64,000 nucleotides of DNA from a virus. Its lineage: Duplodnaviria > Heunggongvirae > Uroviricota > Caudoviricetes. The stretch's first letter is position 1; the number at the start of each line of letters is the position of its first letter. Location of the stretch: IMG/VR virus record IMGVR_UViG_3300005512_005684, positions 167,003 through 231,002 of that record, one strand, 5' to 3'. The notes under the pieces are model-generated. The model ran no database searches, was not told the origin of the DNA, and was given only the letters and a program-made list of their open reading frames with translations. Made by a program: the position numbers and the translations under genes. Below are positions 5,347 to 63,039 of this stretch, piece after piece.

Positions 5347-7359
5347 ATGGAATCTCGAAAGGTAGCCAAGAAAGCCAACCGATACTTGTACCACGTAACT
5401 CGTGCGAGACACCTGGACGATATACGTGAGTATGGACTGGTTCCGAATCGAAGTGGCAATTCTGCTTTCGGTGGTGGCTACGGCGCGCACTCGAAGGGCA
5501 AGATATTTCTGGCTGACTTCAAGACAGCGTTGAAGTGGTTTGAACATATCGACGGTGTGTCGAGTGACGACCGGCCTTCAGACGGTGGCACCCCAGTAAT
5601 GCTGAAAGTTAATTTCGGCGGACTGGAAGTGGAAGATGACGAGTTGGGAAACCGCGACCTCATTGGCAATTCGTTCTTCATTGAGGAAGAGATACCACCG
5701 ACACGAATCCGGGTCTGGTATGGTGGCAAGTGGGAAAAGATACGTGGTGTCGATTCGGAAATGTTCCTTGATGACGTGGAAGCCACCGCAGAGACAGAGG
5801 AATCGGAGGAAGAGTTCGACGAGTATGGACAACCCGCGGAACCGGAGTATCTATGGTGGGACACGGGAATCTTCAAGCCCAGGAAAGCGTCGAGAGTAAT
5901 GCGAATCGCGAGTCGAGTTCTCATAGCTGGCATGGCGGAAAAGGAAGTCGAGCGTTTGATGCGCGTCGTCCTGAAGGATTCGGACTTCCGGGGGAAAGCG
6001 TTCGCCGTGGGCGGATACAACCGAGACGAGCTACTCGGCATCGACAGTAAGGACCTGGACATCGTGGTCGAGGAAAAGGGAGGGGCGGAACGGTTTACGA
6101 AGTACCTTCAGTCACTCTTCCCAGAACAGACCTCACGACCGAGACCGCTTGGAGCCGGTTATCCGATCTGGCAGATCACCTTCAAGGAAGATGTGACCTA
6201 CGAAGGGGAAGAGTATCGTACGAAGGGAGCGGAGATCGAGGTGGCCGATACGCAAAAGGAATCGTATCCCGATCCGAACACTCGCCAACGAGTCACGGAG
6301 TATGGAACGCGCGAAGACGATGCGCGCCGGCGAGACTTTACAGTGAACATGCTCCTGAAAGACTTGACGAGTGGTGAGTTCGTGGACCTTACTGGAGAGA
6401 GCAAGGAAGACGTACGCAAGGGTGTTTTGCGAGGACACCCGGAGGTGCCACTGGACAAGATGTTCTCCGACGATTCTCTCCGAATGTTGCGACTTATTCG
6501 CTTCCAAGTGAAGTACGGGTGGGAAGTCCCACTGGAAGTGTTGCGGGGAGTGAAGCGCAACGCGGATCGGTTGAAGATTCTCTCTGCCGAGAGGATCCGT
6601 GACGAGTTGGAAAAGATCATGAATCTGGGAGAGCTTGCTCGGGCGGTGCGGATCATGAAAGCAACGGGACTCCTGAAACACGTGTTCCCCGAGATCGAGA
6701 AACTCAAAGGTGTCGAACAGGGAGGTTATCACCAGGAAGGGGACGTGTACAAGCATACGTTACTCGTGCTCCAGAACGCCAAGCCTACGGTCGAGGCTCA
6801 GATGGCAGCGTTGCTTCACGACGTGGGCAAGTCCGAGACTCAGGAGTTGATCGGAGACAAGGTGAGCTTCAAGGGACACGAGGCCGTGAGTGCCGATGTT
6901 GCGCGAGCAATTATGAAGCGGTTGAAGTTCGACAACGCGGTGACGAATCGGGTGGTTGCAATCGTGGCGAATCACATGCGCCCACACACACTCGTACGTC
7001 ATGGGAAGGTGACGCCGAAAGCGTTGCGCCGGTTCATGCGGAAGGTTGGGGAAGAGACGTGGGAAGCCGTCCTCGATCAGGCCGAAGCCGATCATCTTGG
7101 TAGGCTCCCGGAGACAGAGAATCAGGTGCCGATGATCCGTGAAGAGATTAAACGTCTCCGTGAAGAGAGTGGACCCGTGGGTGAAACTGCGGTACTGGAC
7201 GGCGGCGAAGTCATGGAGACGATGGGGATCAAGCCGGGGCCGCAGGTGGGTGAAGCGATCCGGTATCTACAGGAAGTAGAGGACGACTACGCCAACGAAG
7301 GGCGGAAACTCTCGAAAGACGAGGCGAAGGTGCTTTTGCGTGAGAAATACGCCGTTTAG
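5347..7359 (+). CDS. cca: CCA-adding enzyme (class II nucleotidyltransferase + HD domain) with N-terminal Tpt1/KptA-like ART domain
   Basis: AVGGYNRDELLG..DLDI, RRRDFTVN, DDSLRMLRLIRF, SAERIRDEL; HD domain EGDVYKHT..LLHDVGK; N-terminal LYHVT..LDDIREYGLVP..PVMLKV..IPPTRI. Confidence 0.85.
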   Translation: MESRKVAKKANRYLYHVTRARHLDDIREYGLVPNRSGNSAFGGGYGAHSKGKIFLADFKTALKWFEHIDGVSSDDRPSDGGTPVMLKVNFGGLEVEDDELGNRDLIGNSFFIEEEIPPTRIRVWYGGKWEKIRGVDSEMFLDDVEATAETEESEEEFDEYGQPAEPEYLWWDTGIFKPRKASRVMRIASRVLIAGMAEKEVERLMRVVLKDSDFRGKAFAVGGYNRDELLGIDSKDLDIVVEEKGGAERFTKYLQSLFPEQTSRPRPLGAGYPIWQITFKEDVTYEGEEYRTKGAEIEVADTQKESYPDPNTRQRVTEYGTREDDARRRDFTVNMLLKDLTSGEFVDLTGESKEDVRKGVLRGHPEVPLDKMFSDDSLRMLRLIRFQVKYGWEVPLEVLRGVKRNADRLKILSAERIRDELEKIMNLGELARAVRIMKATGLLKHVFPEIEKLKGVEQGGYHQEGDVYKHTLLVLQNAKPTVEAQMAALLHDVGKSETQELIGDKVSFKGHEAVSADVARAIMKRLKFDNAVTNRVVAIVANHMRPHTLVRHGKVTPKALRRFMRKVGEETWEAVLDQAEADHLGRLPETENQVPMIREEIKRLREESGPVGETAVLDGGEVMETMGIKPGPQVGEAIRYLQEVEDDYANEGRKLSKDEAKVLLREKYAV

Positions 7360-13827: not shown

Positions 13828-13845
13828 TTGACAGAAAGGACAACG

Positions 13846-15897
13846 ATGGAAACCAGAATCGAAGAACTGGAGCGTGTCATAACTCACCTGGACTCCCTCT
13901 ACGAAGCAGGGGAGGACTGCATACACCCGGACACTGGGCTTCCAGTCTCCGATTCTGAGTACGACGTACTGAGGAAGGAACTGGCGGGTCTGTCTCCAGA
14001 CTCGCCAGTTCTCGAATCAGTCACAGCTTCGATGCTGGAGAGCGGCGTGAAGAAAGTGAAGCACGATCCGCCCATGACCTCTATCTCCAAAGCCATCGGA
14101 GACCTGGGAGAACGTCGGCGAATCCTCTTCAAGTGGCTGAAGGAAACAATGGTGGAGTTGGGCTACTCCGACAGGAAGGGTCATTTCGTCCAGTCCTACA
14201 AACGTGACGGTGTAGCACTCTCGCTCGTGTACAAAGACGGCAAGCTCGTCTCGGCTGGGCTCCGGCCACGGGACGGTGTGAACGGTGAGGACGTGACGGC
14301 GAACGCGAAGTTCGTGGAAGGGATACCGGCGCGATTGCCGGAACCGATTACGTGCACGATCCGTGGGGAACTTGAGTGTCGGATTTCCGTCTTCGAGAAA
14401 ATCAACGCGGAGCTTGAAGCTCGCGGCGATAAGACGTACGCAAATCCGAGAAATTTTACGGCGGGATCGATCAGACAGTTCAAGGATCCGAAGGTCACGA
14501 AAGAACGGCGACTGAGCTTTACCGCGTACCGGATACTTGGCTTTGACGACGCACCGTACAAGACTGAGATCGGTATGGCCAAGTACTGTGCTAAGACGCT
14601 GAAGATTCCGTTTGTTCAGACGCGTCCGTTTCGTGTGACCGATCTTGCCATGATGGAAGAGAACGTGCCGAACCTGGACTACGAGGTTGACGGCGTAGTG
14701 ATCTCCGTTGAAAACCTCGAAGACAGTGAACAACTCGGGACGGTCGGTGGGAGCGATACGGGCAATCCGAAGGGGAAACTGGCTTGGAAGTTTGCGGAAG
14801 AGATTGCGGAGCCAGATGTGGACAAGATCGATTGGCGTGTCGGTCGTACCGGCGACATAACTCCCGTCATGATGTTCGACGCGGTAAGACTGGCCGGAAC
14901 GAACGTTACTCAGTGTACCGGACATAATCTCGGTTTTTTGCAGCGGAAGCGAATCACGGTCGGTACCAAGATTCAGGTGATTAAGTCTGGCAAGATCATT
15001 CCAAAGGTGGTCGGGGTTACGTCGGATGCAGGTGATCCGTGTTACCCGGACGTGTGCCCAGTCTGCGGTGGTGACACGTCGGTCGAGAAAGGTGGTAAGG
15101 ACAAAGAGACAGGGGAACAGCTTGTGAAGCTCGTGTGCCCGAACGTCCTTTGCGGAGCACGCAAGGCAAACATGATATGCCACTATCTCACGACACTGGA
15201 CGTGAAGGGGATCGGGGAGAGTGCGGTACAAAAGCTCCTGGATGCTGGCGTGGTCACGTCGGTTGCGGACTTGTACTCGATTCGCGTCAAGAAAGCCCGT
15301 GAGGCGGGTCTCAGTAAGCGTGAGGCCATTCTCCTGGTCGCTCGCATTCAAGGGATCGATTCACCGGAGAGGACGAAAGAGAACAGTAAGCTCTTGGCGG
15401 CGATCAAAGTCGCTCGGGGGAACAAGACAGTGGTGCCCGCGGCGAAGTTCGTGCAAGCTCTAGGAGTGTCGGGAATCGGTCGTTCGACAGCCAAGGCGTT
15501 GGTCTCGCACTTCGGTGAGTTCGCCAATCTACGGGCGGCAAGCGCGGAAGCTCTGGAAGCCGTAGAAGACGTGGGAGAAAAGACGGCGCGTAGCCTACAT
15601 GATTTCTTCGCTTGCAACGGTGACGTGATAGATGGTATCCTTGAGCATGTCGAGTTAGAGAAACCGAAGACAGGAATCTTCACCGGCAAGGCATTCGTAT
15701 TCACTGGAGGCTTTCCAGGGGGCAAGAAAACCTGGGAAGGCAAGGTGGAAGAACGGGGCGGGAAGTGTTCTGGCTCGGTCTCAAGCAAGACAGATTTCGT
15801 GGTGGTGGGTACTGACGCCGGAGCTAAGGCACAGAAAGCTGCGTCACTCGGAATCAAGATGATAGACGTGACGGAACTGGAGTCGATGTTAGTGTAA
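13846..15897 (+). CDS. ligA: NAD-dependent DNA ligase
   Basis: SDSEYD, YKRDG (KxDG), RGE, NPRNFTAGS, DGVV, AWKF, VGRTGDITP, C4 Zn finger, HhH repeats, C-terminal BRCT. Confidence 0.95.
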   Translation: METRIEELERVITHLDSLYEAGEDCIHPDTGLPVSDSEYDVLRKELAGLSPDSPVLESVTASMLESGVKKVKHDPPMTSISKAIGDLGERRRILFKWLKETMVELGYSDRKGHFVQSYKRDGVALSLVYKDGKLVSAGLRPRDGVNGEDVTANAKFVEGIPARLPEPITCTIRGELECRISVFEKINAELEARGDKTYANPRNFTAGSIRQFKDPKVTKERRLSFTAYRILGFDDAPYKTEIGMAKYCAKTLKIPFVQTRPFRVTDLAMMEENVPNLDYEVDGVVISVENLEDSEQLGTVGGSDTGNPKGKLAWKFAEEIAEPDVDKIDWRVGRTGDITPVMMFDAVRLAGTNVTQCTGHNLGFLQRKRITVGTKIQVIKSGKIIPKVVGVTSDAGDPCYPDVCPVCGGDTSVEKGGKDKETGEQLVKLVCPNVLCGARKANMICHYLTTLDVKGIGESAVQKLLDAGVVTSVADLYSIRVKKAREAGLSKREAILLVARIQGIDSPERTKENSKLLAAIKVARGNKTVVPAAKFVQALGVSGIGRSTAKALVSHFGEFANLRAASAEALEAVEDVGEKTARSLHDFFACNGDVIDGILEHVELEKPKTGIFTGKAFVFTGGFPGGKKTWEGKVEERGGKCSGSVSSKTDFVVVGTDAGAKAQKAASLGIKMIDVTELESMLV

Positions 15898-25771: not shown

Positions 25772-28096
25772 ATGGGTGTTTTGACTTACAATAGCCGCGC
25801 TAACCTCTACGTCTGGCAGGGCGGGTACGAGGAACGGCACGTGCCGAAGCAGGCCGGTTTCCGGTGGTGCTCCGGGCGTTGTAGTTCTAAGTACAACTGC
25901 AAGGCGTGTTCGTCTGGACTGAGGAAGGTGTGGTGGACAGACGACGGAAGCGTGGCTGCAAAACTTGGGCAGTACGCTGACGACTCGGCTAAGGCCGTGT
26001 TCGGCGGCGAACCGCCTGCGGCTGCGAGTGCTCCCGAACCTGCGCCTGAGCCGCCCCGTGATACCAGTAAACTGATCCGTAACGAGGAAGCTGGCATCTA
26101 CGTTTGGCAAGGCGAGTACGAGGAAAAGCACATTCCGAAAGAGGCTGGCTTCCGGTGGTGCTCCGGCAATTGCGATCCGAAGTACAAGTGCGGAGCCTGT
26201 CCGGCTGGCTTGTCCAAGGTTTGGTGGACGTACAAGGACGACGTTGCCGCCAAGCTCGCAAACTTTGCGAACGCCGAGTTGAAGCATCGGTTGCTTTCGG
26301 TTGGTCGTCGTAAACAGGAGCGACTCGACGCAAGTCGTGCCGCGTCTGCGGACGTGGAACTGCCGAAGCCGGAAGGGTTGGAATACCTCCCGTTCCAGAA
26401 AGCCGGTGTCGCGTACGCTCTTGACCGACACAGTACGCTGATCGGTGACGAAATGGGATTGGGGAAAACGATCCAGGCCATCGGGATCATGAACGCCGAT
26501 CCGAGTGTCGAACAGGTGTTGGTTATCTGTCCGGCGTCACTCAAGATCAACTGGAAACGTGAGGTTGAGAAATGGTCGGTGCGTCCGGTGAAGGTTGGAA
26601 TCGCTTCGGGCGATTACTTCCCGGATTCGACACACAACGTGTTCGTGATCAACTACGACATTCTCAAGCGTCACGAATCCAAGATGAAGGGTTTTCAGTG
26701 GGATATGTTGGTGGTGGACGAATGCCACTTGCTGAAAAACCCAAAGGTCCAGCGAACGAAGATCGTGCTCGGTCACTACGACCGCGAGAAAAAGTGTCGG
26801 ACGGTCGAGCCGATTGATGCGCGTCGGCTGGTCTTCATGACCGGGACACCTATCGTCAATAGGCCGGTTGAGCTTCACCCGATTGCGGCTCGGCTTGCGC
26901 CGCAGGTGTTTGGCAATTTCTGGAGGTACGCCCAGAGATACTGCGACGCACAGGAGACCAAGTACGGTTGGGATTTCACCGGTGCGTCGAATCTGGAGGA
27001 ACTCCAGGAGAAACTCCGGTTGTCGATCATGGTGCGACGCCTGAAGTCGGAAGTTATGAAAGAGCTTCCGCCGAAGGTGCGGCAAGTGATCGAAATGCCA
27101 GCTAACGGTTGTGCCAACGCCGTGGCACGTGAGGTCGAATGGTTCAACGAGTACGAAGATCAGATGGAAGAACTCGAAGCCAACGTCGAACTCGCGAAGA
27201 TCGGTGGGACGGAGGAAGAGTACCGGGAAGCGGTTCGTCAGCTTCACGAGGGCATACAGGTGGCCTTCACCGAAATGTCTCAGGTGAGGCACGCGACCGC
27301 GTTGGAAAAGGTCCCGATGGTCGTCGAGCACTTGGAGAACGCTATCGAGTCCTCGGGCAAAGTGATTTGTTTCGCTCACCACCGCGACGTGATTGCGAAA
27401 ATCCTGGAAGCGTTTCCGGATGCCGTGTCTATCACGGGCGATACGCCGATGGTGAAGCGTGACGAAGCGGTAGCAAAGTTCCAGAACGATCCTGAGTGCA
27501 AACTCTTCGTTGGGAACATTCAGGCCGCGGGAGTGGGGCTTACGCTTAATGCGTCGAGCCATGTTGTGTTTGCCGAGTTGGATTGGGTACCTGGTAACGT
27601 GAGCCAGGCCGAAGATCGGGCGCACCGGTTCGGACAGAAGTACTCCGTGCTCGTTCAACATCTTGTTCTTGAGGGTTCACTTGACGCGAGGATGGCCAAC
27701 ATCATCGTGGTCAAGCAAGAGGTGATCGACAAGGCACTGAATGACGAGATCAGGATGGAGATCATGGAGGTGCCGGTGACCCCGATCAAACGTGACCGTT
27801 CCGAGATTCAACGTGACCTGCTTGCGGAGGAAGCGGAAAAGATCACGGTGGAACAGACGGAAGCAATCCACGAGGGTCTCCGTGTGATCGCTGGTATGTG
27901 TGACGGTGCCGAGCAACTTGACGGCATGGGCTTCAACAAGTTCGACACGAAGGTGGGCAAGCGGCTTGCCGGAAGTATCGTGTTGGAACCGATGCAAGCT
28001 GCGTACGGTCGTCGGCTTGTAAGGAAGTACCGTCGGCAGTTGCCGTCGGACCTGGTGACGCTCGCCGTCGAAGGTACGAACGGAAAGGCTGCGTAA
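25772..28096 (+). CDS. SNF2/SWI2-family (SMARCAL1/HARP-like) helicase with tandem N-terminal Cys-containing domains
   Basis: IGDEMGLGKT, VICPASL, VVDECH, MTGTPIVN, RRLK, FAHH, GVGLTL, QAEDRAHR; duplicated YVWQG.YEE.H.PK.AGFRWCSG.C..KY.C.AC..GL.KVWWT. Confidence 0.9.
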   Translation: MGVLTYNSRANLYVWQGGYEERHVPKQAGFRWCSGRCSSKYNCKACSSGLRKVWWTDDGSVAAKLGQYADDSAKAVFGGEPPAAASAPEPAPEPPRDTSKLIRNEEAGIYVWQGEYEEKHIPKEAGFRWCSGNCDPKYKCGACPAGLSKVWWTYKDDVAAKLANFANAELKHRLLSVGRRKQERLDASRAASADVELPKPEGLEYLPFQKAGVAYALDRHSTLIGDEMGLGKTIQAIGIMNADPSVEQVLVICPASLKINWKREVEKWSVRPVKVGIASGDYFPDSTHNVFVINYDILKRHESKMKGFQWDMLVVDECHLLKNPKVQRTKIVLGHYDREKKCRTVEPIDARRLVFMTGTPIVNRPVELHPIAARLAPQVFGNFWRYAQRYCDAQETKYGWDFTGASNLEELQEKLRLSIMVRRLKSEVMKELPPKVRQVIEMPANGCANAVAREVEWFNEYEDQMEELEANVELAKIGGTEEEYREAVRQLHEGIQVAFTEMSQVRHATALEKVPMVVEHLENAIESSGKVICFAHHRDVIAKILEAFPDAVSITGDTPMVKRDEAVAKFQNDPECKLFVGNIQAAGVGLTLNASSHVVFAELDWVPGNVSQAEDRAHRFGQKYSVLVQHLVLEGSLDARMANIIVVKQEVIDKALNDEIRMEIMEVPVTPIKRDRSEIQRDLLAEEAEKITVEQTEAIHEGLRVIAGMCDGAEQLDGMGFNKFDTKVGKRLAGSIVLEPMQAAYGRRLVRKYRRQLPSDLVTLAVEGTNGKAA

Positions 28097-41374: not shown

Positions 41375-41403
41375 TTGACAGGGAATAGCCGGATTCTTAG
41401 AAT
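41375..41403 (+). promoter_or_regulatory. near-consensus sigma70 promoter
   Basis: TTGACA-N17-TAGAAT upstream of the poly-acidic protein gene. Confidence 0.75.
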
Positions 41404-42618: not shown

Positions 42619-42647
42619 TTCGCTGGTAGCGGACAATCGGTATGATC

Positions 42648-42698
42648 GATCAAGGGCGGGAGTCATGGCGTTGACAGCGTTGTGCCCCGCCCTTGATC
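42648..42698 (+). terminator. long hairpin (terminator or processing site)
   Basis: GATCAAGGGCGGG/CCCGCCCTTGATC 13-bp stem. Confidence 0.55.
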
Positions 42699-42756
42699 TT
42701 TACTTGGACAGTTGAGTACGTTACGGATCGGTTGGTCACTTAGTGGAGGAAGTGTC

Positions 42757-44115
42757 ATGGTGAACGTGGTGCGTAGGAAGAAATACATCCAGACCAATGT
42801 GGACGAAAGCCACAACAAGTTTTGGTACATAACCGAGTATGACGACGCGACCGTAGTGCGTGAGTGGGGAGCAGTTGGTACGAGGGGACAGAAAGACAGT
42901 CCAAAGAAGTCTTTCCCCTCTCAAGATGCAGCCAGCAAATTCTTCGACAAGGAATGCAAGGGGAAAGAGAAAGGGAAGAAAGACAAGAAAACCGGCCTGC
43001 GGAAGGTCTATACCGAACTCCAGGTCCTCGACGACGATGGACAGGGGGCAGTGGCACAAGGCACGGTGGCCAATGATTCGTTGTCGGATGTGGCGCATCG
43101 GGACATAAGTGGTGGTGACCCGATTGTCGGCGAACTCGTGGCCATGTTGGTTCGTCAGAACCAACACAATATCCTTACGAACACGACCATGAAGTACAGT
43201 GCGGCGACGGGCTTGTTCTCGACGGCGTGCGGAATTGTGACTCAGGCGTCGATTAACGAGGCTCGTAGTCTCCTGAATCAGTTGGTGCCATACGTGTCCA
43301 GTCAGCAATTCGAGGACACGCAGTACGCGCCGTTGCTGAATCAGTACTTGATGCTCATTCCGCAAAAGGTGAAACGTCAGCGGGGGAAGCTCGTGGCGTC
43401 ATTGATCTTCCCGGACGCCGAGGCGTTGCGAAAGCAAGACGAGATTCTGACTTCGCTACAAGCGTCTCTGGATACGTTACAGACGAGAACGAACGGGGGG
43501 AGTGACGCGGAGGTTGCCAAGGTCTTCGACGTGCGTGTGGCGCTTATCGAAGACGAGGAAGAGATCGAGCGGATCACTCGGAAATACATGGAAACTCGTA
43601 CGTCTATGCACACGTGCGCCCACCTGCGAGTGTCCCGAGTGTTCTCCATGAGGATTGGGAGCATGGTCGAACGCTTTGAGCGTGAGGGTGTGCCTCGCGG
43701 CAACATCTTTGAGTACTGGCACGGGTCTCGTACCAGTAATCTCCTGAGTATTCTTCACAAGGGTCTCATGGTGCCGCCGAAGTCTTCCGATCATGTTACA
43801 GGGAGACTGGTGGGAGACGGTCTGTACTTCAGTGACATTTCCACGAAGGCGTTGGGATACTCATACGGTTTCTGGAGTGGTGGAAACCAGAAAGACAATA
43901 ACCCATTCATGTTCCTCGCGGACGTGGCAATGGGTAAGGTCTTCGAGCCGACGAGTCTGGCCAACGATGGACCTTTCCCAGTGAGAGGATATGATTCGAC
44001 GCTCGCCCGAGCCGGAACAACGATTCGCGGACATCGGACGCTGAAGAACAACGAAATGATCGTGTACACGGTCGGACAGGTAAATCTCAAGCGCATGGTG
44101 GAGTTCACGTCTTAG
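42757..44115 (+). CDS. PARP1-like poly(ADP-ribose) polymerase (WGR + regulatory + catalytic domains)
   Basis: WGR: NKFW..EWGAVGTRGQ; regulatory: GIVTQASINEARSLL..NQYLMLIP; catalytic: WHGSRTSNLLSILHKGL..GDGLYFSD..KALGY..NNEMIVY. Confidence 0.92.
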   Translation: MVNVVRRKKYIQTNVDESHNKFWYITEYDDATVVREWGAVGTRGQKDSPKKSFPSQDAASKFFDKECKGKEKGKKDKKTGLRKVYTELQVLDDDGQGAVAQGTVANDSLSDVAHRDISGGDPIVGELVAMLVRQNQHNILTNTTMKYSAATGLFSTACGIVTQASINEARSLLNQLVPYVSSQQFEDTQYAPLLNQYLMLIPQKVKRQRGKLVASLIFPDAEALRKQDEILTSLQASLDTLQTRTNGGSDAEVAKVFDVRVALIEDEEEIERITRKYMETRTSMHTCAHLRVSRVFSMRIGSMVERFEREGVPRGNIFEYWHGSRTSNLLSILHKGLMVPPKSSDHVTGRLVGDGLYFSDISTKALGYSYGFWSGGNQKDNNPFMFLADVAMGKVFEPTSLANDGPFPVRGYDSTLARAGTTIRGHRTLKNNEMIVYTVGQVNLKRMVEFTS

Positions 44116-44148
44116 TCGGTTACTTGGTATCACACGGAGGAAAGTGTT

Positions 44149-44832
44149 ATGAGTCTGCAAGCATCTGAGATCGAAGCAGTCGAAAAGATTGTGTCGGTGA
44201 AAATGGACGCCGAGGAAATGTTCACGGCGTTCAACGTGACCCTTGAGGCGCAGATGCAGGGCGTCCATAGGAAGAACGTCGAGTTACGGGACATCATTCA
44301 CATGATGTATGAGCGTGGTAACATGCCAGACTATACCCGGACGTTAAAGGACATTCCGGGAGCGCCGGCCCCGGCCTGGGTCTATCACCCGGAGCACATG
44401 TCTGCGGATGATTTCATGCCGTTGGATCGAACTGGGCAACGGAGACAGAAACAGGCGACGGCGATTCAGGTCGCGCAAGCGGCAATGGGAGCTTCGCCGA
44501 AAGCTCCGGTTGCAACGGCTCCGCAACCGACGGCTCCGGTTCCGGCAGTTGGGGCGCATGTGCCGGACGGTCGTGGTCGGGTGTGTGTCCCGGTCGAAAT
44601 GGTGAAGTCTCTCGGGTTGGTCAAAGGTGACGACGTGTACGTGGCCGTGAATACGGAACGGCTGGAGGTGACGAAGGGTTACCCAACGGCGGACGTTGCG
44701 GTGATCGGTTACGTGGTCGATCCGCGAGGTAACATTCGCGTGTCGAAGCAGACTCTCGACAGGGCACAGTTCAAGTGCTCCGAGTTCAACATCGTGGCGG
44801 AGAACGGTACCGTTGTGATCACACCAAAGTAG
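44149..44832 (+). CDS. protein with C-terminal tandem AbrB/SpoVT/MraZ-like domains
   Basis: PDGRGRVCVPVEMVKSLGLVKGDDVYV and VDPRGNIRVSK. Confidence 0.6.
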   Translation: MSLQASEIEAVEKIVSVKMDAEEMFTAFNVTLEAQMQGVHRKNVELRDIIHMMYERGNMPDYTRTLKDIPGAPAPAWVYHPEHMSADDFMPLDRTGQRRQKQATAIQVAQAAMGASPKAPVATAPQPTAPVPAVGAHVPDGRGRVCVPVEMVKSLGLVKGDDVYVAVNTERLEVTKGYPTADVAVIGYVVDPRGNIRVSKQTLDRAQFKCSEFNIVAENGTVVITPK

Positions 44833-46555: not shown

Positions 46556-46830
46556 ACAGAGAAGTAATCGAGCTTTGCTTCGAGCCGGACACCCCTCGAA
46601 TCGAGGTGTCGAGAGAGGTGGCTCAGATGATCACTCAGCTTCGTGACGACCTGGACATTACTGACCATGACCTGGCGGAGCGTGCGGGTGTTGCGTATGG
46701 TCTCGTGTGGAACTGGTCGCATCCGAAGGGTAGTCGTGGATTGTCGGTTCATACCTTGCTCCATATCGCACGAGCTTTTGACAAGCGTCTCGTGATTCGT
46801 TTCGAGGACATCGAACAGAAAGGTCAATGA
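46552..46830 (+). CDS. XRE-like HTH protein
   Basis: DLAERAGV..SVHTLLHIARAFDKRLVIRF. Confidence 0.7.
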   Translation: MNREVIELCFEPDTPRIEVSREVAQMITQLRDDLDITDHDLAERAGVAYGLVWNWSHPKGSRGLSVHTLLHIARAFDKRLVIRFEDIEQKGQ

Positions 46831-48941
46831 TGGGACGCCGAATCAAGTACCTGGACAAGGACTTTCGCGCCGATGCTCTGGCCATTATTGAGCAAGCGAA
46901 TACGATCATTGACGACTATCGGTCACAGGGCTTCGACTTGACTTTGAGACAGTTGTATTATCAGTTTGTCGCCCGTGGTCTCATGGAGAACGAAGACCGG
47001 AACTACAAGCGCCTTGGGAAGATTATATCGGACGGGCGCATTGCGGGACTGGTGGACTGGGACGCTATACAGGATCGAACCCGCAACCTTCGGGCGAATG
47101 AGAGTTGGGCTTCCCCTGCGGACATCATGCGGGATACTGCCGGATGGTATCACCGGGACATGTGGGCGAATCAGAGCGTGCGTGTTGAGTGTTTTCCTTC
47201 CGATACTTTGGTGAGACTTCGGGATAGGATGGAATTGATAGAGAGTGTCAGGGTCGGAGACGAAGTTCTTTCGGATGATGGTAGTTTTAGGAAGGTCACG
47301 AAGACGTTTGTTCGTGATTACGTTGGCAGGTTAATCGAGATTGACGCGGTTGGTTTACTTTCGTTTGCGTGTACGCCAGAACACCCTATCTTGATACGAC
47401 CGTATGACGATTCCAGACCTGGTTACAAAGGCGCTCGTCGCAAGTACGGCAAGAGATGTTTTGCTCATACCGATGTTCTAAAGAAGTATGATTTTCTGTG
47501 TGTGCCGAGGATACGTTCTGTGAGAGACGTGTCGTGTGTCACGATGCCCGGAGGAACAGTCAGAGCCAAAGCCTATTCGGCAATACTGGACGAGGACATG
47601 TGTGCCTTGATCGGAACGTATCTGGCAGAGGGGAGAGTGAGAGAGGATGGACGTACCTTACAGTTTACGTTGAATGCAAACGAGACCGAGGCACGAAAGA
47701 GAATACAAAAGTGGGCGGAGCGCGTTGGATTGAGACATCATTGTGTGGTGAGTGGAAGTGTGGCTCAGGTCTATGTTTATAGCAAAAGCGTAGCGGATTG
47801 GTTTGAGCAAAACTTTGGTAATGGTGCGTACGAGAAGCGAATTCCTGAGTGGATGATTTTCCTACCTATTCCAAAGCAGATGGCTTTGTTGAAGACGTAC
47901 TTTGAGGGAGACGGTTCGTTGTGGGACGAAACACGGTCGTCAATACGAGCAAGTACTCGTAGTTATCAACTTGCCTCTGTGATTCAGTTAATCTTTGCTA
48001 GGGTTGGTCTGGGTGCGTGTCTCAATACTCAGATGGATTCTGGGGATATGAGGTACGAGATCGGAGTGAATGGTGCGTTTGCTGAGACATTGGCTAGAGA
48101 GTGGGGTATCGAGTTACCCAAGATGTCCAGTAGATATAATTGGATCCGTGTGGATAGTGAGTTTGTGTACTATCCTGTGAGAGAGATAGGAAATCGTTTT
48201 TACCGCGGTCCAGTGCATAATCTTGAAGTGGAAAAACGACATACCTATTGTCTTCCATGCGTTGTACATAATTGTTGGATCGAGAAAGACGCGCTAATCG
48301 GTGTGATTATGCCTGTGTGTCGTGAGTTGGACGTGCCGCACTTTTCGTGTCGTGGGTACGTGAGTCAATCTGAAATGTGGATCGCAGGCCGGCGCGCCGT
48401 CCAGCGTTGGGCGAAGGAACGTAAGCGTACGATCATCCTTCACCTGGGAGATCATGACCCCTCCGGTGTCCAGATGACAGAGGACATGGAGAAACGACTG
48501 GACATGTTCTCGACTCCGACCGAGCGTGACGGTTTCAATCCAGAGGACATAATCGAAGTCAAGCGCATTGCGTTGACGATGGAGCAAGTCAATCAGTACA
48601 ACCCTCCGCCTAATTCGGCCAAGCTCACGGACACGAGGTCGAAGGCATACGTGGCTCGGTACGGTAATAGTTCCTGGGAACTTGACGCGTTAGAACCAAC
48701 TGTACTCGATGCTCTGATTCGCACTCACGTTGAGTCATACCGAGACCTGAGTCAGTGGACTGAGGACTTGGAGAAGATCGAGCGTGAGCGAAAAGTGTTG
48801 ACAACGATCTCTCAGAATTGGGTTGAGGTCGATGAATTCGTCAACGAGAACTTTGAGCCGGAGCCAGAGCTACCGGAGCCGGTCGAGGATGACGACGAAG
48901 ACCTGGAAGACGAAGACCTGGGAGAGGGAAATGAGGATTGA
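46827..48941 (+). CDS. Toprim-domain (TopoVI-A/Spo11-like) protein containing an intein
   Basis: TLRQLYYQ..RVE|CWIEKDAL..RGY..LHLGDHDPSG..RIALT..WELDAL. Confidence 0.8.
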   Translation: MMGRRIKYLDKDFRADALAIIEQANTIIDDYRSQGFDLTLRQLYYQFVARGLMENEDRNYKRLGKIISDGRIAGLVDWDAIQDRTRNLRANESWASPADIMRDTAGWYHRDMWANQSVRVECFPSDTLVRLRDRMELIESVRVGDEVLSDDGSFRKVTKTFVRDYVGRLIEIDAVGLLSFACTPEHPILIRPYDDSRPGYKGARRKYGKRCFAHTDVLKKYDFLCVPRIRSVRDVSCVTMPGGTVRAKAYSAILDEDMCALIGTYLAEGRVREDGRTLQFTLNANETEARKRIQKWAERVGLRHHCVVSGSVAQVYVYSKSVADWFEQNFGNGAYEKRIPEWMIFLPIPKQMALLKTYFEGDGSLWDETRSSIRASTRSYQLASVIQLIFARVGLGACLNTQMDSGDMRYEIGVNGAFAETLAREWGIELPKMSSRYNWIRVDSEFVYYPVREIGNRFYRGPVHNLEVEKRHTYCLPCVVHNCWIEKDALIGVIMPVCRELDVPHFSCRGYVSQSEMWIAGRRAVQRWAKERKRTIILHLGDHDPSGVQMTEDMEKRLDMFSTPTERDGFNPEDIIEVKRIALTMEQVNQYNPPPNSAKLTDTRSKAYVARYGNSSWELDALEPTVLDALIRTHVESYRDLSQWTEDLEKIERERKVLTTISQNWVEVDEFVNENFEPEPELPEPVEDDDEDLEDEDLGEGNED
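47190..48272 (+). mobile_element. intein with LAGLIDADG homing endonuclease (361 aa)
   Basis: Starts CFPSDTLV; block B HPIL; LAGLIDADG-like LIGTYLAEG and YFEGDGS; ends VHNLEV..VVHN followed by Cys(+1). Confidence 0.92.
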
Positions 48942-57891: not shown

Positions 57892-59625
57892 ATGGCCAAT
57901 CCACCAACGGCAATTCCGCAAGCGCCTGATCGAATCACGGTCTTCGTGAGGGGGAAAGGGAAGAAAGGGGTCACGCTCACGGAGAAAGAGTATGTGGTGA
58001 GTGGTGGTGAAGGACATATCTGGACTAAGAATGGTGTAGCGTTCAAGGTATGTCACAAGAACCGGATGATACCGCTCGGCAAGCTGGACGAACTCAGAGT
58101 CTTGAACGCTCCCTTTCTGGTCGTGCCCAAAGATATCCTTGAAGACAAGCGCGGCAAGCCTATCGGGTACACGATGCCGTTCGTGGATCATACTCACGCA
58201 ATGGCGGAACTATTCCCGACTGCGTTCTGGAATGACAACGGGCTTACACCGCCAATTGTTGCGGATGTCGTTCGGGAGTTTCAGGCTGGAGTCCAGTACG
58301 TGCATGGGAAGGGGATCAAGCTCGTGGACATTAACGAGTGGAACTTCCTTGTGACAGAGAAAGACTTCAGTCCGATTCACTTCATTGACACGAACTCGTA
58401 TGCAACTCCGAACTTCCCGGCGCAGGCAATCTCTCCGACCGTGCGGGACTATCACACCCAAGGTTTCAGTGAAGAGACCGATTGGTACTCCTGGGCGGTG
58501 GTGACGTTCTTCCTCTGGATCGGAATCCATCCGTTTCGAGGCCGGCACCCGGACTGTGGTGGGGATATTGTCGAGCGCATGAAGAAATCCGCGTCGGTGT
58601 TGGATCCCGGTGTCAAGATACCGGGAAACTGCCGGGGCTTTGATACGATCCCCGAGGGACTACGGAGGTGGTATATGGACTTGTTCCAGCAAGGCAAGCG
58701 TGGTGCCCCTCCGACCGATTACGAAGCCGTCAAGGCCGTTGCGACAGTAATGAGGAAGGTGGCTAGTACGGCACAGTTCAGCATCGAGGACATTCAGGAG
58801 TATCCCGAGGCTATCGTGCGCTTCCTGAGTGAGTCTCGACTCCCCACGGTCGTGACCCGGAGCGGAATTCACGTCGGCCCCCGAGTGGCTCACGCGTTTG
58901 TGCCCAAGTCGGTGATCGGTGTCGGGAACAAGGGGACGCCGGTTTTGTGTTCGATTAAGAACGAAACCATTCGATTAACCGACTTGAACACAGGTAACGA
59001 GCTAACGACTTCGGGTCTCCGTGGTGAGCGTTTGATGTCGTACTACGGACGTGTCTTCGTCAAGTGCGGAACGATGGTCAATGAACTTTCGCTTCGTGAA
59101 ATGGGAAGCACGTTCGTGGCCACGGCTCGACAGGTTGGTTCGGTCATGGAGAAATCGACTCGCATGTGCGACGGCGTGATCGTGACGAATATCCTGGGGG
59201 TGTGCTACGCATTGCTTCCGGGTGAGAGTCAAGGGTGTTACCAGGTGCGGCTCGACGAGATTGAGCCGGGTACGAAGATTCTCGATGCGAAGTACGACCG
59301 TGGTGTGCTCATGGTGATCGTCTCAAAGGGTGGTGTGTACTCGAAGCTGATCTACCGGTTCAATACAGCGTTCACGGATCGGTCGCTTCGGGTCGAGGAA
59401 GACGTGTCCGCCGACGCGCCGGTCTTCACCGTCCTGGAAAAAGGTGTGTGCGCGCACGTGCCCGAGGACGGCAAGGTCGAGTTGTTCGCGGTCGATCCGA
59501 AGTCCGGGACGATCAACGTGATCGAAGACCCGGTGATCAGTCTCGATATGAGGCTATTCAATGATGGAACGTCGGTGGTGTTCTCGACAGGGAACAAGTT
59601 GATGCGACTCCGAATGAAGTCGTGA
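57892..59625 (+). CDS. Ser/Thr protein kinase-like protein with C-terminal beta-rich domain
   Basis: SGGEGHIW, AFKV, LVDINEWNFLV, FIDTNSY, TDWYSWAV..GIHPFRG. Confidence 0.85.
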   Translation: MANPPTAIPQAPDRITVFVRGKGKKGVTLTEKEYVVSGGEGHIWTKNGVAFKVCHKNRMIPLGKLDELRVLNAPFLVVPKDILEDKRGKPIGYTMPFVDHTHAMAELFPTAFWNDNGLTPPIVADVVREFQAGVQYVHGKGIKLVDINEWNFLVTEKDFSPIHFIDTNSYATPNFPAQAISPTVRDYHTQGFSEETDWYSWAVVTFFLWIGIHPFRGRHPDCGGDIVERMKKSASVLDPGVKIPGNCRGFDTIPEGLRRWYMDLFQQGKRGAPPTDYEAVKAVATVMRKVASTAQFSIEDIQEYPEAIVRFLSESRLPTVVTRSGIHVGPRVAHAFVPKSVIGVGNKGTPVLCSIKNETIRLTDLNTGNELTTSGLRGERLMSYYGRVFVKCGTMVNELSLREMGSTFVATARQVGSVMEKSTRMCDGVIVTNILGVCYALLPGESQGCYQVRLDEIEPGTKILDAKYDRGVLMVIVSKGGVYSKLIYRFNTAFTDRSLRVEEDVSADAPVFTVLEKGVCAHVPEDGKVELFAVDPKSGTINVIEDPVISLDMRLFNDGTSVVFSTGNKLMRLRMKS

Positions 59626-60490: not shown

Positions 60491-60889
60491 ATGTCTGATC
60501 CAGCCAAAGAACGAGAGGTAGTCCGTGGAATACATGAAGGTGAGTTGGGTATGCACCTTCACACGAACCTGCGAAAGTTCTGCGACTCCAGACCGACTAG
60601 CCTGGCGTACAACTTGGTTCACTTAGACTCGTGCAACGAAGCGTGGTACGGGTACCTGGATGCCGTGTGGGCGAAGCTCAAAGAGAGTGACAAGCCAGCG
60701 TGTGAAATCCTCAAGGAATGTGCTCATGACGAGGATGGGTCTCTCCAGTGGGGAGACAGTGCTCGGAACGCTTTGCGGATCGCTTTCGATTGCTTTGACG
60801 ATGGAGATTGGGTTGGCATGGCCGCGTACATTGATCCGAAAGACTGCGAGGTCGATGAACCTTTTCCAGCGGAAGACACGGAGGAGTAA
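60491..60889 (+). CDS. hypothetical protein
   Basis: GGGAG RBS. Confidence 0.6.
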   Translation: MSDPAKEREVVRGIHEGELGMHLHTNLRKFCDSRPTSLAYNLVHLDSCNEAWYGYLDAVWAKLKESDKPACEILKECAHDEDGSLQWGDSARNALRIAFDCFDDGDWVGMAAYIDPKDCEVDEPFPAEDTEE

Positions 60890-60893
60890 GACG

Positions 60894-62045
60894 ATGGATA
60901 GACTGATCGGTGACGAGTTACTCCTGGATAACGATCTCTACAAGTTCTCCATGATGAATGCGGTCTTGTGCCACTACGAAGGGACGCCGGTTCGGTACAA
61001 GTTGTTCAATCGAGGTGACACACTATTCAGTGCCTCTACGGCTTCCATGCTGCGCGAGCATGTGGACGCGATGGGTGGATACAGTCTCTCCGAGGGTGCC
61101 TTGGACTGGCTGCGTGCGACGTGTCCATACTTCACCGACGAGTTATTCCAGTACTTGTCAACGTATACACTCGACCCTTCAGAGGTCCGACTGACGTACG
61201 ACGACAACCTGGGGATCGAGGTCGAAGGTGCGTGGGAGAGTGCGATCATGTGGGAGGTGCCTTTGATGGCGGTGCTCAGTGAGCTTCACTTCCGGGATAC
61301 GCAAGTGGACTACTCGGAGTTTCGAGCCAATACAGTGTTGAAGAGAGAGTTGCTTCAGCGTCATGGTTGTATGCACGCGGATTTCTCGACGCGTCGTCGG
61401 TTCGCTCGGAGGTCGCAGGACGAGGCCGTGGACGCGCTCCGACACTCTGAGTGCTTCCTGGGTACGAGCAACGTGAGGCTGGCACGTAGCCGTAACTTGA
61501 ATCCTATTGGCACGATGGCACATGAATGGGTAATGGGTCTCTCGGCGATCCTGGGTCTCCGTCATGTGAATACGAAAGCTCTTGAAGCGTGGCAAGACGT
61601 GTTCGGGAGTTCATTGGGAATCGCGTTGACGGATACGTATACGACGGACGCATTTCTGCGAGAGTTCAACAAGGAACTGGCGGAATCGCGTGATGGTGTG
61701 CGACAGGACAGTGGTGATCCACATGCGTATCTCGCAAAGCTCGTCGCTCACTATCAAAGTCTCGGGATCGATCCGAATACGAAGACGATCATCTTCAGTG
61801 ACGGGTTGTCCGTGAGTAAAGCGGTGGCGATCAAGCTGGCGTGCGACTCGGCGGGTATCAAGTGTGGTTTCGGAATAGGAACTCATTTCTCAAATGACTT
61901 CGAGGACGTGACGCCGTTGAACATCGTGATCAAACTTGTCATGTGCGATGGTAAACCGGTCGCCAAGCTCAGCGACGATCCAGGGAAGGTTACAGGGGAT
62001 AACGCTCAAGCAATCCAGGACGCTCAAGATAGCATCCGTGTTTGA
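60894..62045 (+). CDS. pncB: nicotinate phosphoribosyltransferase
   Basis: DNDLYKFSM, WEVPLMA, DFSTRRR, GTSNV, GTMAHEW, LTDTY, VRQDSGDP, IFSDGL, FGIGT, LNIVIKL, KLSDDPGK. Confidence 0.93.
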   Translation: MDRLIGDELLLDNDLYKFSMMNAVLCHYEGTPVRYKLFNRGDTLFSASTASMLREHVDAMGGYSLSEGALDWLRATCPYFTDELFQYLSTYTLDPSEVRLTYDDNLGIEVEGAWESAIMWEVPLMAVLSELHFRDTQVDYSEFRANTVLKRELLQRHGCMHADFSTRRRFARRSQDEAVDALRHSECFLGTSNVRLARSRNLNPIGTMAHEWVMGLSAILGLRHVNTKALEAWQDVFGSSLGIALTDTYTTDAFLREFNKELAESRDGVRQDSGDPHAYLAKLVAHYQSLGIDPNTKTIIFSDGLSVSKAVAIKLACDSAGIKCGFGIGTHFSNDFEDVTPLNIVIKLVMCDGKPVAKLSDDPGKVTGDNAQAIQDAQDSIRV

Positions 62046-62058
62046 AAGGGGAACTACA

Positions 62059-63039
62059 ATGAAGCGACTACGATTCAAGTTCGGTATTGAATATGCGATT
62101 CGTGAGTTGACGAGCCAGGCGATCAACTTGGTAACGGAGGCCGGGAAGAAAGGGGTAGCACTAGGAGTCAGTGGTGGTGTGGATTCCGCAACGGCGTTGA
62201 GCGTATGGCATGAAGCGTTTGCTCGGTACAATGCTCATGAGTCGGAGGAAGACTGTCTTCGGGTGATCTGCTTACTGATCCCTTCGGATGCAAATGATCC
62301 ATCGGACTATGAAGATGGTGTCAGGGTCGTTGAGGGTGTTAGAGAGAAAGGTGGTGTGGTGGTTGAGCAACACGTGATTGATGTGGAACCGTTTGTTGCA
62401 CCGTTTCGCACGAAGGCTTTCAGCAAGTTGATGCCTGACAAGTTGCAGAAAACGTTTTGGGAGAACCTCTACTCCGAAATGCGAGCGGTGATTCTCAGTC
62501 GGGTGGCTGAGGCCCATAATTGCCTCTTGGCCGGGACAGGAAACTATGACGAGGATTACGTCCTCGGATATTACACGAAGCGTGGTGACGGTGCGGTTGA
62601 TAACAACCTCCTGGCCATGCTTCCGAAATCTCTTGTGCGAGTGTTGGCGGCGAACCTGGGTGTTGATTCTGAGATTGTGAACCGGGAGCCGACGGCGGGT
62701 CTCAGTGAAGGGCAGACCGACCGTGGTGACCTGGGGTACGATTACGAGGTGGCAAATGAAGTGTGGCTCGAAGCGTTGACTCACTCGGCGTACATGAGAA
62801 AGCATGACAGGGAGGGAGTGGCTCACAGCATCTTCGGTGCGCTCAAAGGCCATGTTGCGTCTGAGAGTGTCCTGGACGTTCTCCGGCGCAATGAGACCAC
62901 GGAGCACAAGCGCAAGCCGCCAACAATCGGTATGGTCTCCCTGGAACTGGAGGAAAATGGGAAGTTCTCTACCTGGAGTGGGGCCGGTGAAGACGGTATC
63001 TTCCGTTGTCCGGCAATTGGCTTTGAGGAAGAGGTCTGA
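62059..63039 (+). CDS. nadE: NH3-dependent NAD+ synthetase
   Basis: LGVSGGVDS, RAVIL, GTGNYDE..GYYTKRGDG, PTAGLSEGQTD..DLG, EHKR; no glutaminase domain. Confidence 0.9.
   Translation: MKRLRFKFGIEYAIRELTSQAINLVTEAGKKGVALGVSGGVDSATALSVWHEAFARYNAHESEEDCLRVICLLIPSDANDPSDYEDGVRVVEGVREKGGVVVEQHVIDVEPFVAPFRTKAFSKLMPDKLQKTFWENLYSEMRAVILSRVAEAHNCLLAGTGNYDEDYVLGYYTKRGDGAVDNNLLAMLPKSLVRVLAANLGVDSEIVNREPTAGLSEGQTDRGDLGYDYEVANEVWLEALTHSAYMRKHDREGVAHSIFGALKGHVASESVLDVLRRNETTEHKRKPPTIGMVSLELEENGKFSTWSGAGEDGIFRCPAIGFEEEV

Follow-up and report, generated by a model that had tools for sequence, protein, structure and literature searches.

A PARP-family protein with an altered WGR motif and a linked gene for a predicted DNA-binding partner in a jumbo tailed phage

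The window described here is a 64,000-nucleotide stretch of the IMG/VR record IMGVR_UViG_3300005512_005684, a viral sequence of 331,348 bp with an estimated completeness of 99%. It contains the gene of a poly(ADP-ribose) polymerase (PARP), P0001, which is followed by the gene of a second protein, P0121, referred to below as the partner. The record can be assigned to a tailed jumbo phage because a terminase large subunit and a portal protein were matched by PHROG profiles in the genome. As judged from its sequence, P0001 is a genuine protein of the PARP/ARTD H-Y-E clade with a complete active site. The favoured reading, to which we give a probability of about one half, is that P0001 is a genuine and probably active ADP-ribosyltransferase (ART) of this phage that acts with its partner on DNA-bound targets. 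PARPs were already known in large phages; the replacement of an arginine by alanine in the WGR motif of P0001 and the conserved partner gene look new.

Domain architecture and active site of the phage PARP

The PARP gene is one intact open reading frame (ORF) of 452 codons that runs from an ATG at 42757 to a TAG at 44113-44115. A longer form starting from a TTG at 42712 was discarded because the spacing of the GGAGG ribosome-binding site suits the ATG and the N-termini of homologs align from the methionine at 42757. The protein has no N-terminal extension able to serve as a packaging tag. An earlier note on this DNA, written from the sequence alone, had described the gene product as a full WGR-regulatory-catalytic polymerase, and the three peptide segments that it quoted are all found in the translation. 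The gene, its domains, and the codons discussed below are as follows.

42745..42749, plus strand: GGAGG ribosome-binding site, 7 nt before the ATG at 42757 (sequence)
42757..44115, plus strand: PARP gene P0001, 452 aa, with WGR, helical, and ART catalytic domains (ORF and translation; PF00644 and PF05406 above their cut-offs; PARP1 and PARP2 by sequence and fold)
42757..43026, plus strand: WGR domain, about residues 1-90 (Pfam; alignment to the PARP3 WGR structure 2EOC; strands at 4-39 and a helix at 56-72 in the AlphaFold2 model)
42871..42873, plus strand: GCA codon of Ala39 at the WGR arginine position, R591 in PARP1, R140 in PARP2, and R103 in PARP3 (family alignment; PARP3 alignment)
43081..43491, plus strand: helical domain (HD, PARP_reg-like), about residues 109-245 (sub-threshold Pfam match; AlphaFold2 helices; full-length fold match; conserved leucines)
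43522..44112, plus strand: ART catalytic domain, about residues 256-452 (Pfam PARP, 80 bits; invariant triad)
43720-43722, plus strand: codon of triad residue H322
43825-43827, plus strand: codon of triad residue Y357
44053-44055, plus strand: codon of triad residue E433

The Pfam PARP catalytic domain PF00644 is matched by P0001 at 80 bits against a cut-off of 26.7 (E 2.1e-22), and the WGR domain PF05406 is matched over residues 12-72 at 33 bits against a cut-off of 22. A phmmer search of the PDB aligned human PARP1 with residues 152-408 at an E value of 4.5e-19 (about 5e-19 for catalytic-domain structures) and PARP2 with residues 11-397. The AlphaFold2 (AF2) model, built on 32 homologs, has a predicted local distance difference test score (pLDDT) of 82.3 and superposes on the WGR-HD-ART chain of PARP1 bound at a DNA break (4dqy_C, template modelling score 0.66; 8g0h_D, E 5e-26); the whole model also superposes on PARP2. 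The helical domain can be regarded as real at the fold level, because the model matches the DNA-bound PARP1 chain, although Pfam PARP_reg scores only 16.7 bits against a cut-off of 26.8. From residue 152 on, the sequence can be aligned with the helical domain of PARP1, and the leucines L173, L231, and L234, which are invariant in the family, fall on the core leucines of 'AYSIL' and 'MLDNLL' in PARP1. In many bacterial PARPs the helical domain is likewise missed by Pfam (PMC5966428). The WGR-HD-ART arrangement of P0001 is that of a prokaryotic and phage family with the PARP2/PARP3-type architecture. The full architecture and the autoinhibitory helical domain described by the earlier note are thus borne out by the Pfam, PDB, and fold matches and by the invariant leucines, and its placement in a phage by the terminase and portal genes.

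Conservation was assessed in a family alignment of 218 sequences, in which 119 metagenomic homologs were combined with the PARPs from fetched loci; equivalence to PARP1 residues is based on HMMER alignments and ungapped motif matches. The residues H322, G323, Y357, K364, Y368, and E433, which correspond to H862, G863, Y896, K903, Y907, and E988 of PARP1, are invariant in 218/218. The H-Y-E triad of the earlier note, H322, Y357, and E433, is intact, and its residues align with the WHGS, GIYFAD, and NEYIVY segments of PARP1. Three further positions vary or depart from PARP1. Position 365 (S904 in PARP1) is Ala in P0001, a recurrent variant found in 45 of the 218 sequences, with Ser as the family majority. 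Position 351 (M890) is Leu, which also recurs (34/218) in a family where Met predominates. At position 431 (Y986), P0001 carries Asn, as do nearly all members (216/218).

The earlier note also concluded that P0001 is a polymerase because the polymerising glutamate is retained, and this step does not hold. The H-Y-E triad is necessary but not sufficient for polymer synthesis, since human PARP3 and PARP4 have the triad and yet make mono-ADP-ribose. For PARP3, a preprint reports both the H-Y-E residues and a mono-ADP-ribose product. The better argument for polymer synthesis is kinship with HaPARP of Herpetosiphon aurantiacus and CdPARP of Clostridioides difficile CD160, which carry out DNA-dependent poly(ADP-ribose) (PAR) synthesis in vitro (PMC5966428, PMC8120803) and are the only assayed prokaryotic members of the family in the literature searched. 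The choice between polymer and mono-ADP-ribose is not readable from the sequence of P0001 alone; this kinship points to polymer. Given a PARP3-like architecture and no PARG in the phage, mono-ADP-ribosylation or modification of nucleic-acid ends may also be options.

The altered WGR motif and the partner gene

At position 39 of the family alignment, the arginine of the WGR motif is present in 217 of the 218 members and is replaced by Ala in P0001 only. The tryptophan, W37, is kept, and the motif of P0001 reads WGAVG; an independent alignment to the PARP3 WGR structure 2EOC places 'WGAVG' over 'WGRVG'. The GCA codon of A39 is two substitutions away from CGA or AGA. Arginines stand at positions 35 and 43 of P0001, where they are rare among relatives. 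In human PARP1-3, both the Trp and the Arg of W-G-R are needed for DNA-dependent activation: DNA-dependent activity is lost in the mutants R591A of PARP1, R140A of PARP2, and R103A of PARP3, and the PARP2 and PARP3 mutants retain unaffected DNA-independent activity (PMC4081085). The WGR arginine is also among the top coevolving positions of bacterial PARPs, G58 and R59 (PMC5966428).

Canonically, the enzyme is switched on when its WGR domain reads a DNA break and the helical domain unfolds; this switch appears doubtful in P0001 because the WGR arginine that it requires is Ala. The earlier note had listed the WGR sensor as retained, which is correct for the domain and for W37 but not for the arginine that gives the motif its name. 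Its description of the enzyme as DNA-end-activated is insecure for P0001, given that P0001 alone among the 218 has Ala at this position and that the human Arg-to-Ala mutants lose DNA-dependent activity. A DNA-end trigger is plausible for the family and is weakened for P0001 by the unique substitution. The activation of P0001 may be altered, weak, or supplied by the partner, whose gene follows directly downstream.

44136-44140, plus strand: GGAGG of the partner gene (sequence)
44149..44832, plus strand: partner gene P0121, 227 aa, with a winged helix at 1-85, a disordered linker at about 90-135, and a tandem AbrB/MraZ-like region at about 135-227 (AF2; fold matches; linkage)

The PARP and partner genes are 33 nt apart and have near-identical GGAGG sites, and no terminator was found between them. 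No Pfam or PHROG model matched P0121; Pfam MazE_antitoxin reaches 21.1 bits, below its threshold of 24.7. The AF2 model has a pLDDT of 87.7, exceeding 92 over residues 140-227. Its N-terminal winged helix resembles the Fur, Zur, PadR, and Z-alpha domains with Z scores of 6-8. The C-terminal half, modeled as two AbrB-like beta-beta-alpha-beta-beta repeats that form one barrel, matches MraZ (1n0e) with a Z score of 8.2 and a root-mean-square deviation of 3.1 over 95 residues (Foldseek E 8.9e-4) and also matches Atlas clusters with PF04014 and PF02381. In the model, both halves of the partner are DNA-binding folds.

The linkage of the two genes is recurrent. The ORFs of all loci were clustered, and the partner, the gene after PARP, was the sole widely recurring family besides PARP itself. 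A hidden Markov model (HMM) of the partner detects it in 47 of 113 loci, of which 33 are viral, 13 are bacterial, and one is that of the window; its strand is always that of PARP, and it lies mostly 0-800 nt past the PARP stop codon. It is present in 20 of the 23 best-ranked viral loci of the scan (L007-L029), and the 595-kb phage record LR756511 also has the pair. On the PARP tree, the presence of the partner occurs on both sides of the midpoint root and requires 14 changes (32 when the labels are shuffled), which suggests an old pairing that has been lost several times. In the cultured phages XacN1 and FBKp34, the gene after PARP encodes a vWA protein or a 155-aa hypothetical protein, and the partner HMM gave no match to these genes. 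The genes downstream of PARP in other partner-less phage loci (clusters c8 and c21, and L031) were considered as diverged partners and were rejected with hhalign probabilities below 1%; one of them carries a PP-binding domain.

The partner family extends beyond the loci that contain a PARP. A word-based homolog search returned 8 proteins only, whereas an exhaustive profile search gave 2,490 partner representatives (50% identity clusters) at E <= 1e-3. The winged helix is the conserved core of this family, and many bacterial versions are without the AbrB half; longer forms showed an HNH fusion and a weak SH3-like match only. Nine representatives were sampled down the ranking of the profile search, and eight could be evaluated. 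A PARP gene lies directly upstream in 4/8, an NMNAT-like gene (CTP_transf_like) directly upstream in 1/8, and an ADP-ribosylglycohydrolase (ARH) 0.4 kb downstream in 1/8; nothing related occurs within 3 kb in 2/8. The association of the partner family may be with NAD and ADP-ribose genes in a wider sense and not with PARP alone. The relatives that adjoin the NMNAT and ARH genes and have no PARP neighbor are at L137:2386-3594 and L138:1639-3864.

Genome context and distribution of phage PARPs

The genome of the phage encodes other proteins that use, supply, or could act on NAD+ and ADP-ribose. The features in the window that bear on NAD+ supply and on expression of the PARP region are listed below.

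13828..15897, plus strand: NAD-dependent DNA ligase LigA with BRCT (Pfam), 27 kb upstream of PARP in the same genome arm
41375-41403: near-consensus sigma-70-like promoter (TTGACA, 17-nt spacer, TAGAAT) before the gene of a hyper-acidic protein
42648..42697, plus strand: 50-nt G+C-rich hairpin within the 138 nt that separate the hyper-acidic protein gene from PARP (RNA fold)
60660-62045, plus strand: NAPRTase (Pfam, 218.9 bits; genome search)
61936-63039, plus strand: NAD synthase (Pfam, 132.8 bits; genome search)

LigA is another consumer of NAD beside PARP. The NAD salvage genes (60660..63039) lie 17 kb downstream of PARP, where they are supporting context outside the cassette, and are accompanied by a weakly matched isochorismatase-like gene. 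The whole gap at 42619-42760 folds at -54.6 kcal/mol (z -2.9), and the hairpin within it may be a terminator, an operator, or another regulatory element. Genome-wide profile searches gave no match for Terminase_6N, SIR2, or NMNAT/NadD.

As a check, the earlier note had proposed looking for a PARG or a macrodomain elsewhere in the genome, and only the latter was found. The microbial PARG model PF10021 had no match in the genome, with its control matched in Deinococcus, and the ARH model PF03747 had none either, with its controls matched; the eukaryotic PARG model PF05028 also gave no match, but its control matched nowhere either. A 204-aa protein encoded outside the window, at C1:63360-63974 of the genome (L003:1105-1719), has an excisionase/MerR-type helix-turn-helix (HTH) at its N-terminus and a DarG/TARG1-like macrodomain (5m3i, E 1.6e-12) in which the PTK and GGLD motifs are kept. 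This HTH-macrodomain protein is a candidate for the removal of ADP-ribose from protein or DNA, or alternatively a candidate anti-DarT device.

In other phages, a ligase gene of the ATP-dependent DNA type or the T4 RNA type lies about 0.3-4 kb from PARP and shares its strand; this holds for 12 of the 60 IMG/VR loci and also for L135. The T4-type RNA ligase 1 (Rnl1) is near PARP in L026, L035, L037, L040, L044, and L057, and the ATP-dependent DNA ligase in L015, L017, L022, L023, L046, and L053. Topoisomerase II and dNMP kinase genes are often near these PARP-ligase loci.

Several further features of the window and its record were observed. A 704-aa gene at 46827-48941 on the plus strand is broken by an intein with a LAGLIDADG homing endonuclease (Hint and LAGLIDADG_3). 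The same one-strand gene array includes a CCA-adding or poly(A) polymerase-like enzyme with an HD domain (5347-7359), a SNF2-family helicase (25772-28096), and a weakly matched protein-kinase-like protein (57892-59625). The record closes, in its last 100 bases, with a tandemly repeated unit about 27 nt long (GGGCGTGACAGGGAGTTCGGGCGTAAC).

PARPs of this kind are widespread, and the statement of the earlier note that they are rare in phages is contradicted by the loci, the cultured phages, and the published work described here. In a word-based search, 934 proteins reached E <= 1e-5, the best of them 45-47% identical to P0001; among the homologs listed from this search, all are 417-465 aa long with a PARP catalytic domain and nearly all also have a WGR domain. 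Megablast against a phage collection found no close phage relative of the 10 kb around the PARP gene. Seven cultured phages carry a full-length PARP at about 30% identity, namely Xanthomonas phages XacN1 and Xoo-sp13, Stenotrophomonas phages CM1 and RAS14, and Klebsiella phages FBKp34, KP13-16, and 05F01; four of these proteins are annotated as PARP. Motif-limited scans identified at least 60 IMG/VR loci with PARP, many on contigs of 300-550 kb, and at least 52 bacterial loci, mainly from Armatimonadota, Blastocatellia, and a metagenome-assembled genome (MAG) of Gemmataceae; because these scans were seeded with motifs and used a naive ORF caller, the counts are lower bounds biased to closer relatives. 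Further bacterial carriers are Pseudomonas and Paracoccus megaplasmids, mycobacteria, and Leifsonia sp. Leaf264. Viral PARPs with H-Y-E were listed in PMC4245714, and jumbo phages that combine PARP with NAD synthesis genes and an NAD-dependent ligase are described in PMC11662467.

The PARP tree was built with FastTree, without bootstraps, and was midpoint-rooted. Phage and bacterial PARPs interleave on it with 12 label changes, and P0001 pairs with the phage locus L017 with a support of 94. The PARPs of L088, L092, and L112 are on megaplasmids of 0.5-1 Mb from Paracoccus and Pseudomonas and are without the partner gene. The PARP of L103, on a contig from an Altiarchaeales MAG, groups with the viral L055 from IMG/VR with 100% local support. 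This archaeal-binned gene could derive from a virus of that archaeon or could be a binning artefact; no archaeal PARPs were reported in PMC4245714.

Mechanism, alternative explanations, and known systems

On the favoured reading, the PARP would be made inside the infected cell, where it is most likely co-transcribed with the partner gene, whose product would bring a winged helix and an MraZ/AbrB-like barrel as its two DNA-binding modules. Together, PARP and partner would act on DNA-bound targets, where the enzyme would use NAD+ to attach ADP-ribose, probably in chains, to itself, to the partner, or to further DNA-associated proteins. The nicotinate-route salvage genes of the phage would help to sustain NAD+, and the DarG/TARG1-like macrodomain encoded elsewhere in the genome could remove the mark. 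The partner offers the best clue to function and may be a target, a targeting or activating subunit, or a regulator of ADP-ribose genes. A broader proposal, which we consider rather unlikely, is that PARP and the winged-helix/AbrB protein constitute a widespread, undescribed two-component ADP-ribosylation module that phages and bacteria share. In such a module the partner would supply the DNA targeting or activating signal, instead of or alongside WGR, in a manner comparable to the zinc fingers or HPF1 for PARP1, and the loss of the WGR arginine would be tolerated as control passed to the partner.

Several observations weigh against the favoured reading. At the equivalents of S904 and M890, two positions of the NAD site or the acceptor site, P0001 has a residue other than that of most family members. 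Its branch is long, 0.72 against a median of 0.34, which could mean relaxed constraint. More than half of the PARP loci are without a partner, including the cultured XacN1 and FBKp34, and the enzyme family is therefore not dependent on it; moreover, gene adjacency of PARP and partner is not proof of binding. Arg35 and Arg43, close to A39, might restore the lost contact, in which case the canonical DNA switch would still hold. Finally, the literature search found no biochemical data for any phage PARP.

A repair role of the DNA-break-sensor type has been proposed for jumbo-phage PARP (PMC11662467), and a canonical sensor of this type is possible in P0001, although we consider it rather unlikely. 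The WGR domain would read phage ends or nicks, the helical domain would unfold, and PAR would organise repair, replication, or recombination, with the Arg-to-Ala change compensated, for example, by Arg35 or Arg43. This explanation accords with the conserved architecture and helical-domain core, with the retention of W37, and with the DNA dependence of HaPARP and CdPARP. It is also in keeping with the presence of LigA in the same window and of a DNA or RNA ligase within 4 kb of PARP in the 12 phage loci noted above, which include the nearest relative, L017, and in L135. It must nevertheless accommodate a substitution that is exactly the one that abolishes DNA-dependent activity in human PARP1-3 and is unique among the 218 relatives, and the compensation by two unusual arginines flanking the lost one is conjecture. 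In a quite improbable alternative, P0001 would not be a protein PAR polymerase but a mono-ADP-ribosyltransferase, or an enzyme that ADP-ribosylates nucleic-acid ends, an activity reported for PARP1-3. It would mark or cap DNA or RNA ends that carry a phosphate, working alongside phage ligases. P0001 has the architecture of PARP3, an H-Y-E enzyme with a mono-ADP-ribose product; RNA and DNA ligases recur beside phage PARPs; no PARG was found, and the genome's sole candidate eraser belongs to the DarG/TARG1 type, whose substrates are mono-ADP-ribose and ADP-ribosylated DNA; and the position of Y986 is Asn in all but two of the family. Set against these points, K364, Y368, and E433, whose PARP1 equivalents contribute to chain elongation, are invariant. 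Enzymes of the same architecture, HaPARP and CdPARP, also make polymers, which speaks against this alternative; PMC8053099, which lists PARP1-3 among DNA- and RNA-modifying enzymes, speaks for it.

The fold of the C-terminal half of the partner is of the MazE/AbrB antitoxin type, one relative is annotated by the Joint Genome Institute (JGI) as a PrlF-type antitoxin, and the two genes form a tight unit that moves between phages, chromosomes, and megaplasmids. These features would suit a toxin-antitoxin-like or exclusion module, in which PARP is an NAD+-draining or protein-modifying toxin checked by the partner and serves in plasmid-like addiction or superinfection exclusion, or in abortive infection in bacteria. 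Such a module is very improbable, however, because many family PARPs have no partner, the partner in turn is found in places without PARP, the bacterial partner is often a winged helix only that has lost the AbrB part, and the phage invests in NAD+ salvage rather than depletion; a role of the partner as antitoxin is less likely than those named above. Functional decay, with an intact ORF under relaxed selection and the regulated activity lost, would explain the unique loss of an otherwise invariant residue, the minority residues at two more positions of the active site, and the terminal branch, which is roughly twice as long as the median. It appears extremely improbable for a frame of 452 intact codons that has a good ribosome-binding site, retains its partner gene, and keeps all catalytic and NAD-binding residues that are invariant in the family.

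Prokaryotic and phage PARPs have already been catalogued, and the P0001 locus leaves the catalogue unchanged. Its value is as an experimental handle: the residue through which human PARPs couple DNA sensing to catalysis has changed naturally from Arg to Ala in P0001 and is still Arg in 217 relatives. The conserved and unannotated DNA-binding partner family, with about 2,490 clusters, tied to PARP and in sampled cases to NMNAT or ARH genes, is a second handle. Should the partner prove to be the target of the enzyme or its activator, PARP signalling outside eukaryotes would gain a first physiological foothold, and the occurrence of PARP in large phages that carry their own NAD+ supply would be explained.

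Among known systems, HaPARP and CdPARP resemble P0001 in the order WGR, PARP_reg, and PARP_cat within about 430-450 aa, in the H-Y-E triad, and in the conserved helical-domain leucines. PARylation by these two enzymes is reversible (PMC8120803), and eleven bacterial species are credited with a complete PAR metabolism that includes PARG (PMC4245714); the phage differs in that its genome is without PARG or ARH and the WGR arginine of P0001 is Ala. The PARP of Leifsonia sp. Leaf264, which appears on the tree of PMC5966428, is 32% identical to P0001. The PARPs of cultured large phages have the same domains at about 30% identity over the full length, and those of the 'NAD-jumbo phages' (PMC11662467) share the context of NAD synthesis genes and an NAD-dependent ligase; in XacN1 and FBKp34, however, unrelated genes follow PARP. 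Human PARP2 and PARP3, which are activated by 5'-phosphorylated breaks, share the domain order, the fold, the WGR tryptophan, the helical core, and the H-Y-E triad, whereas P0001 is about 20% identical to them, has no N-terminal tail, and carries Ala at the R140/R103 position. The C-terminal half of the partner corresponds to MraZ and the SpoVT/AbrB swapped-hairpin proteins as a tandem AbrB-like repeat in one chain. The partner differs from them in carrying a winged helix, joined to this barrel by a long disordered linker, and in the genomic association of its gene with PARP and ADP-ribose genes.

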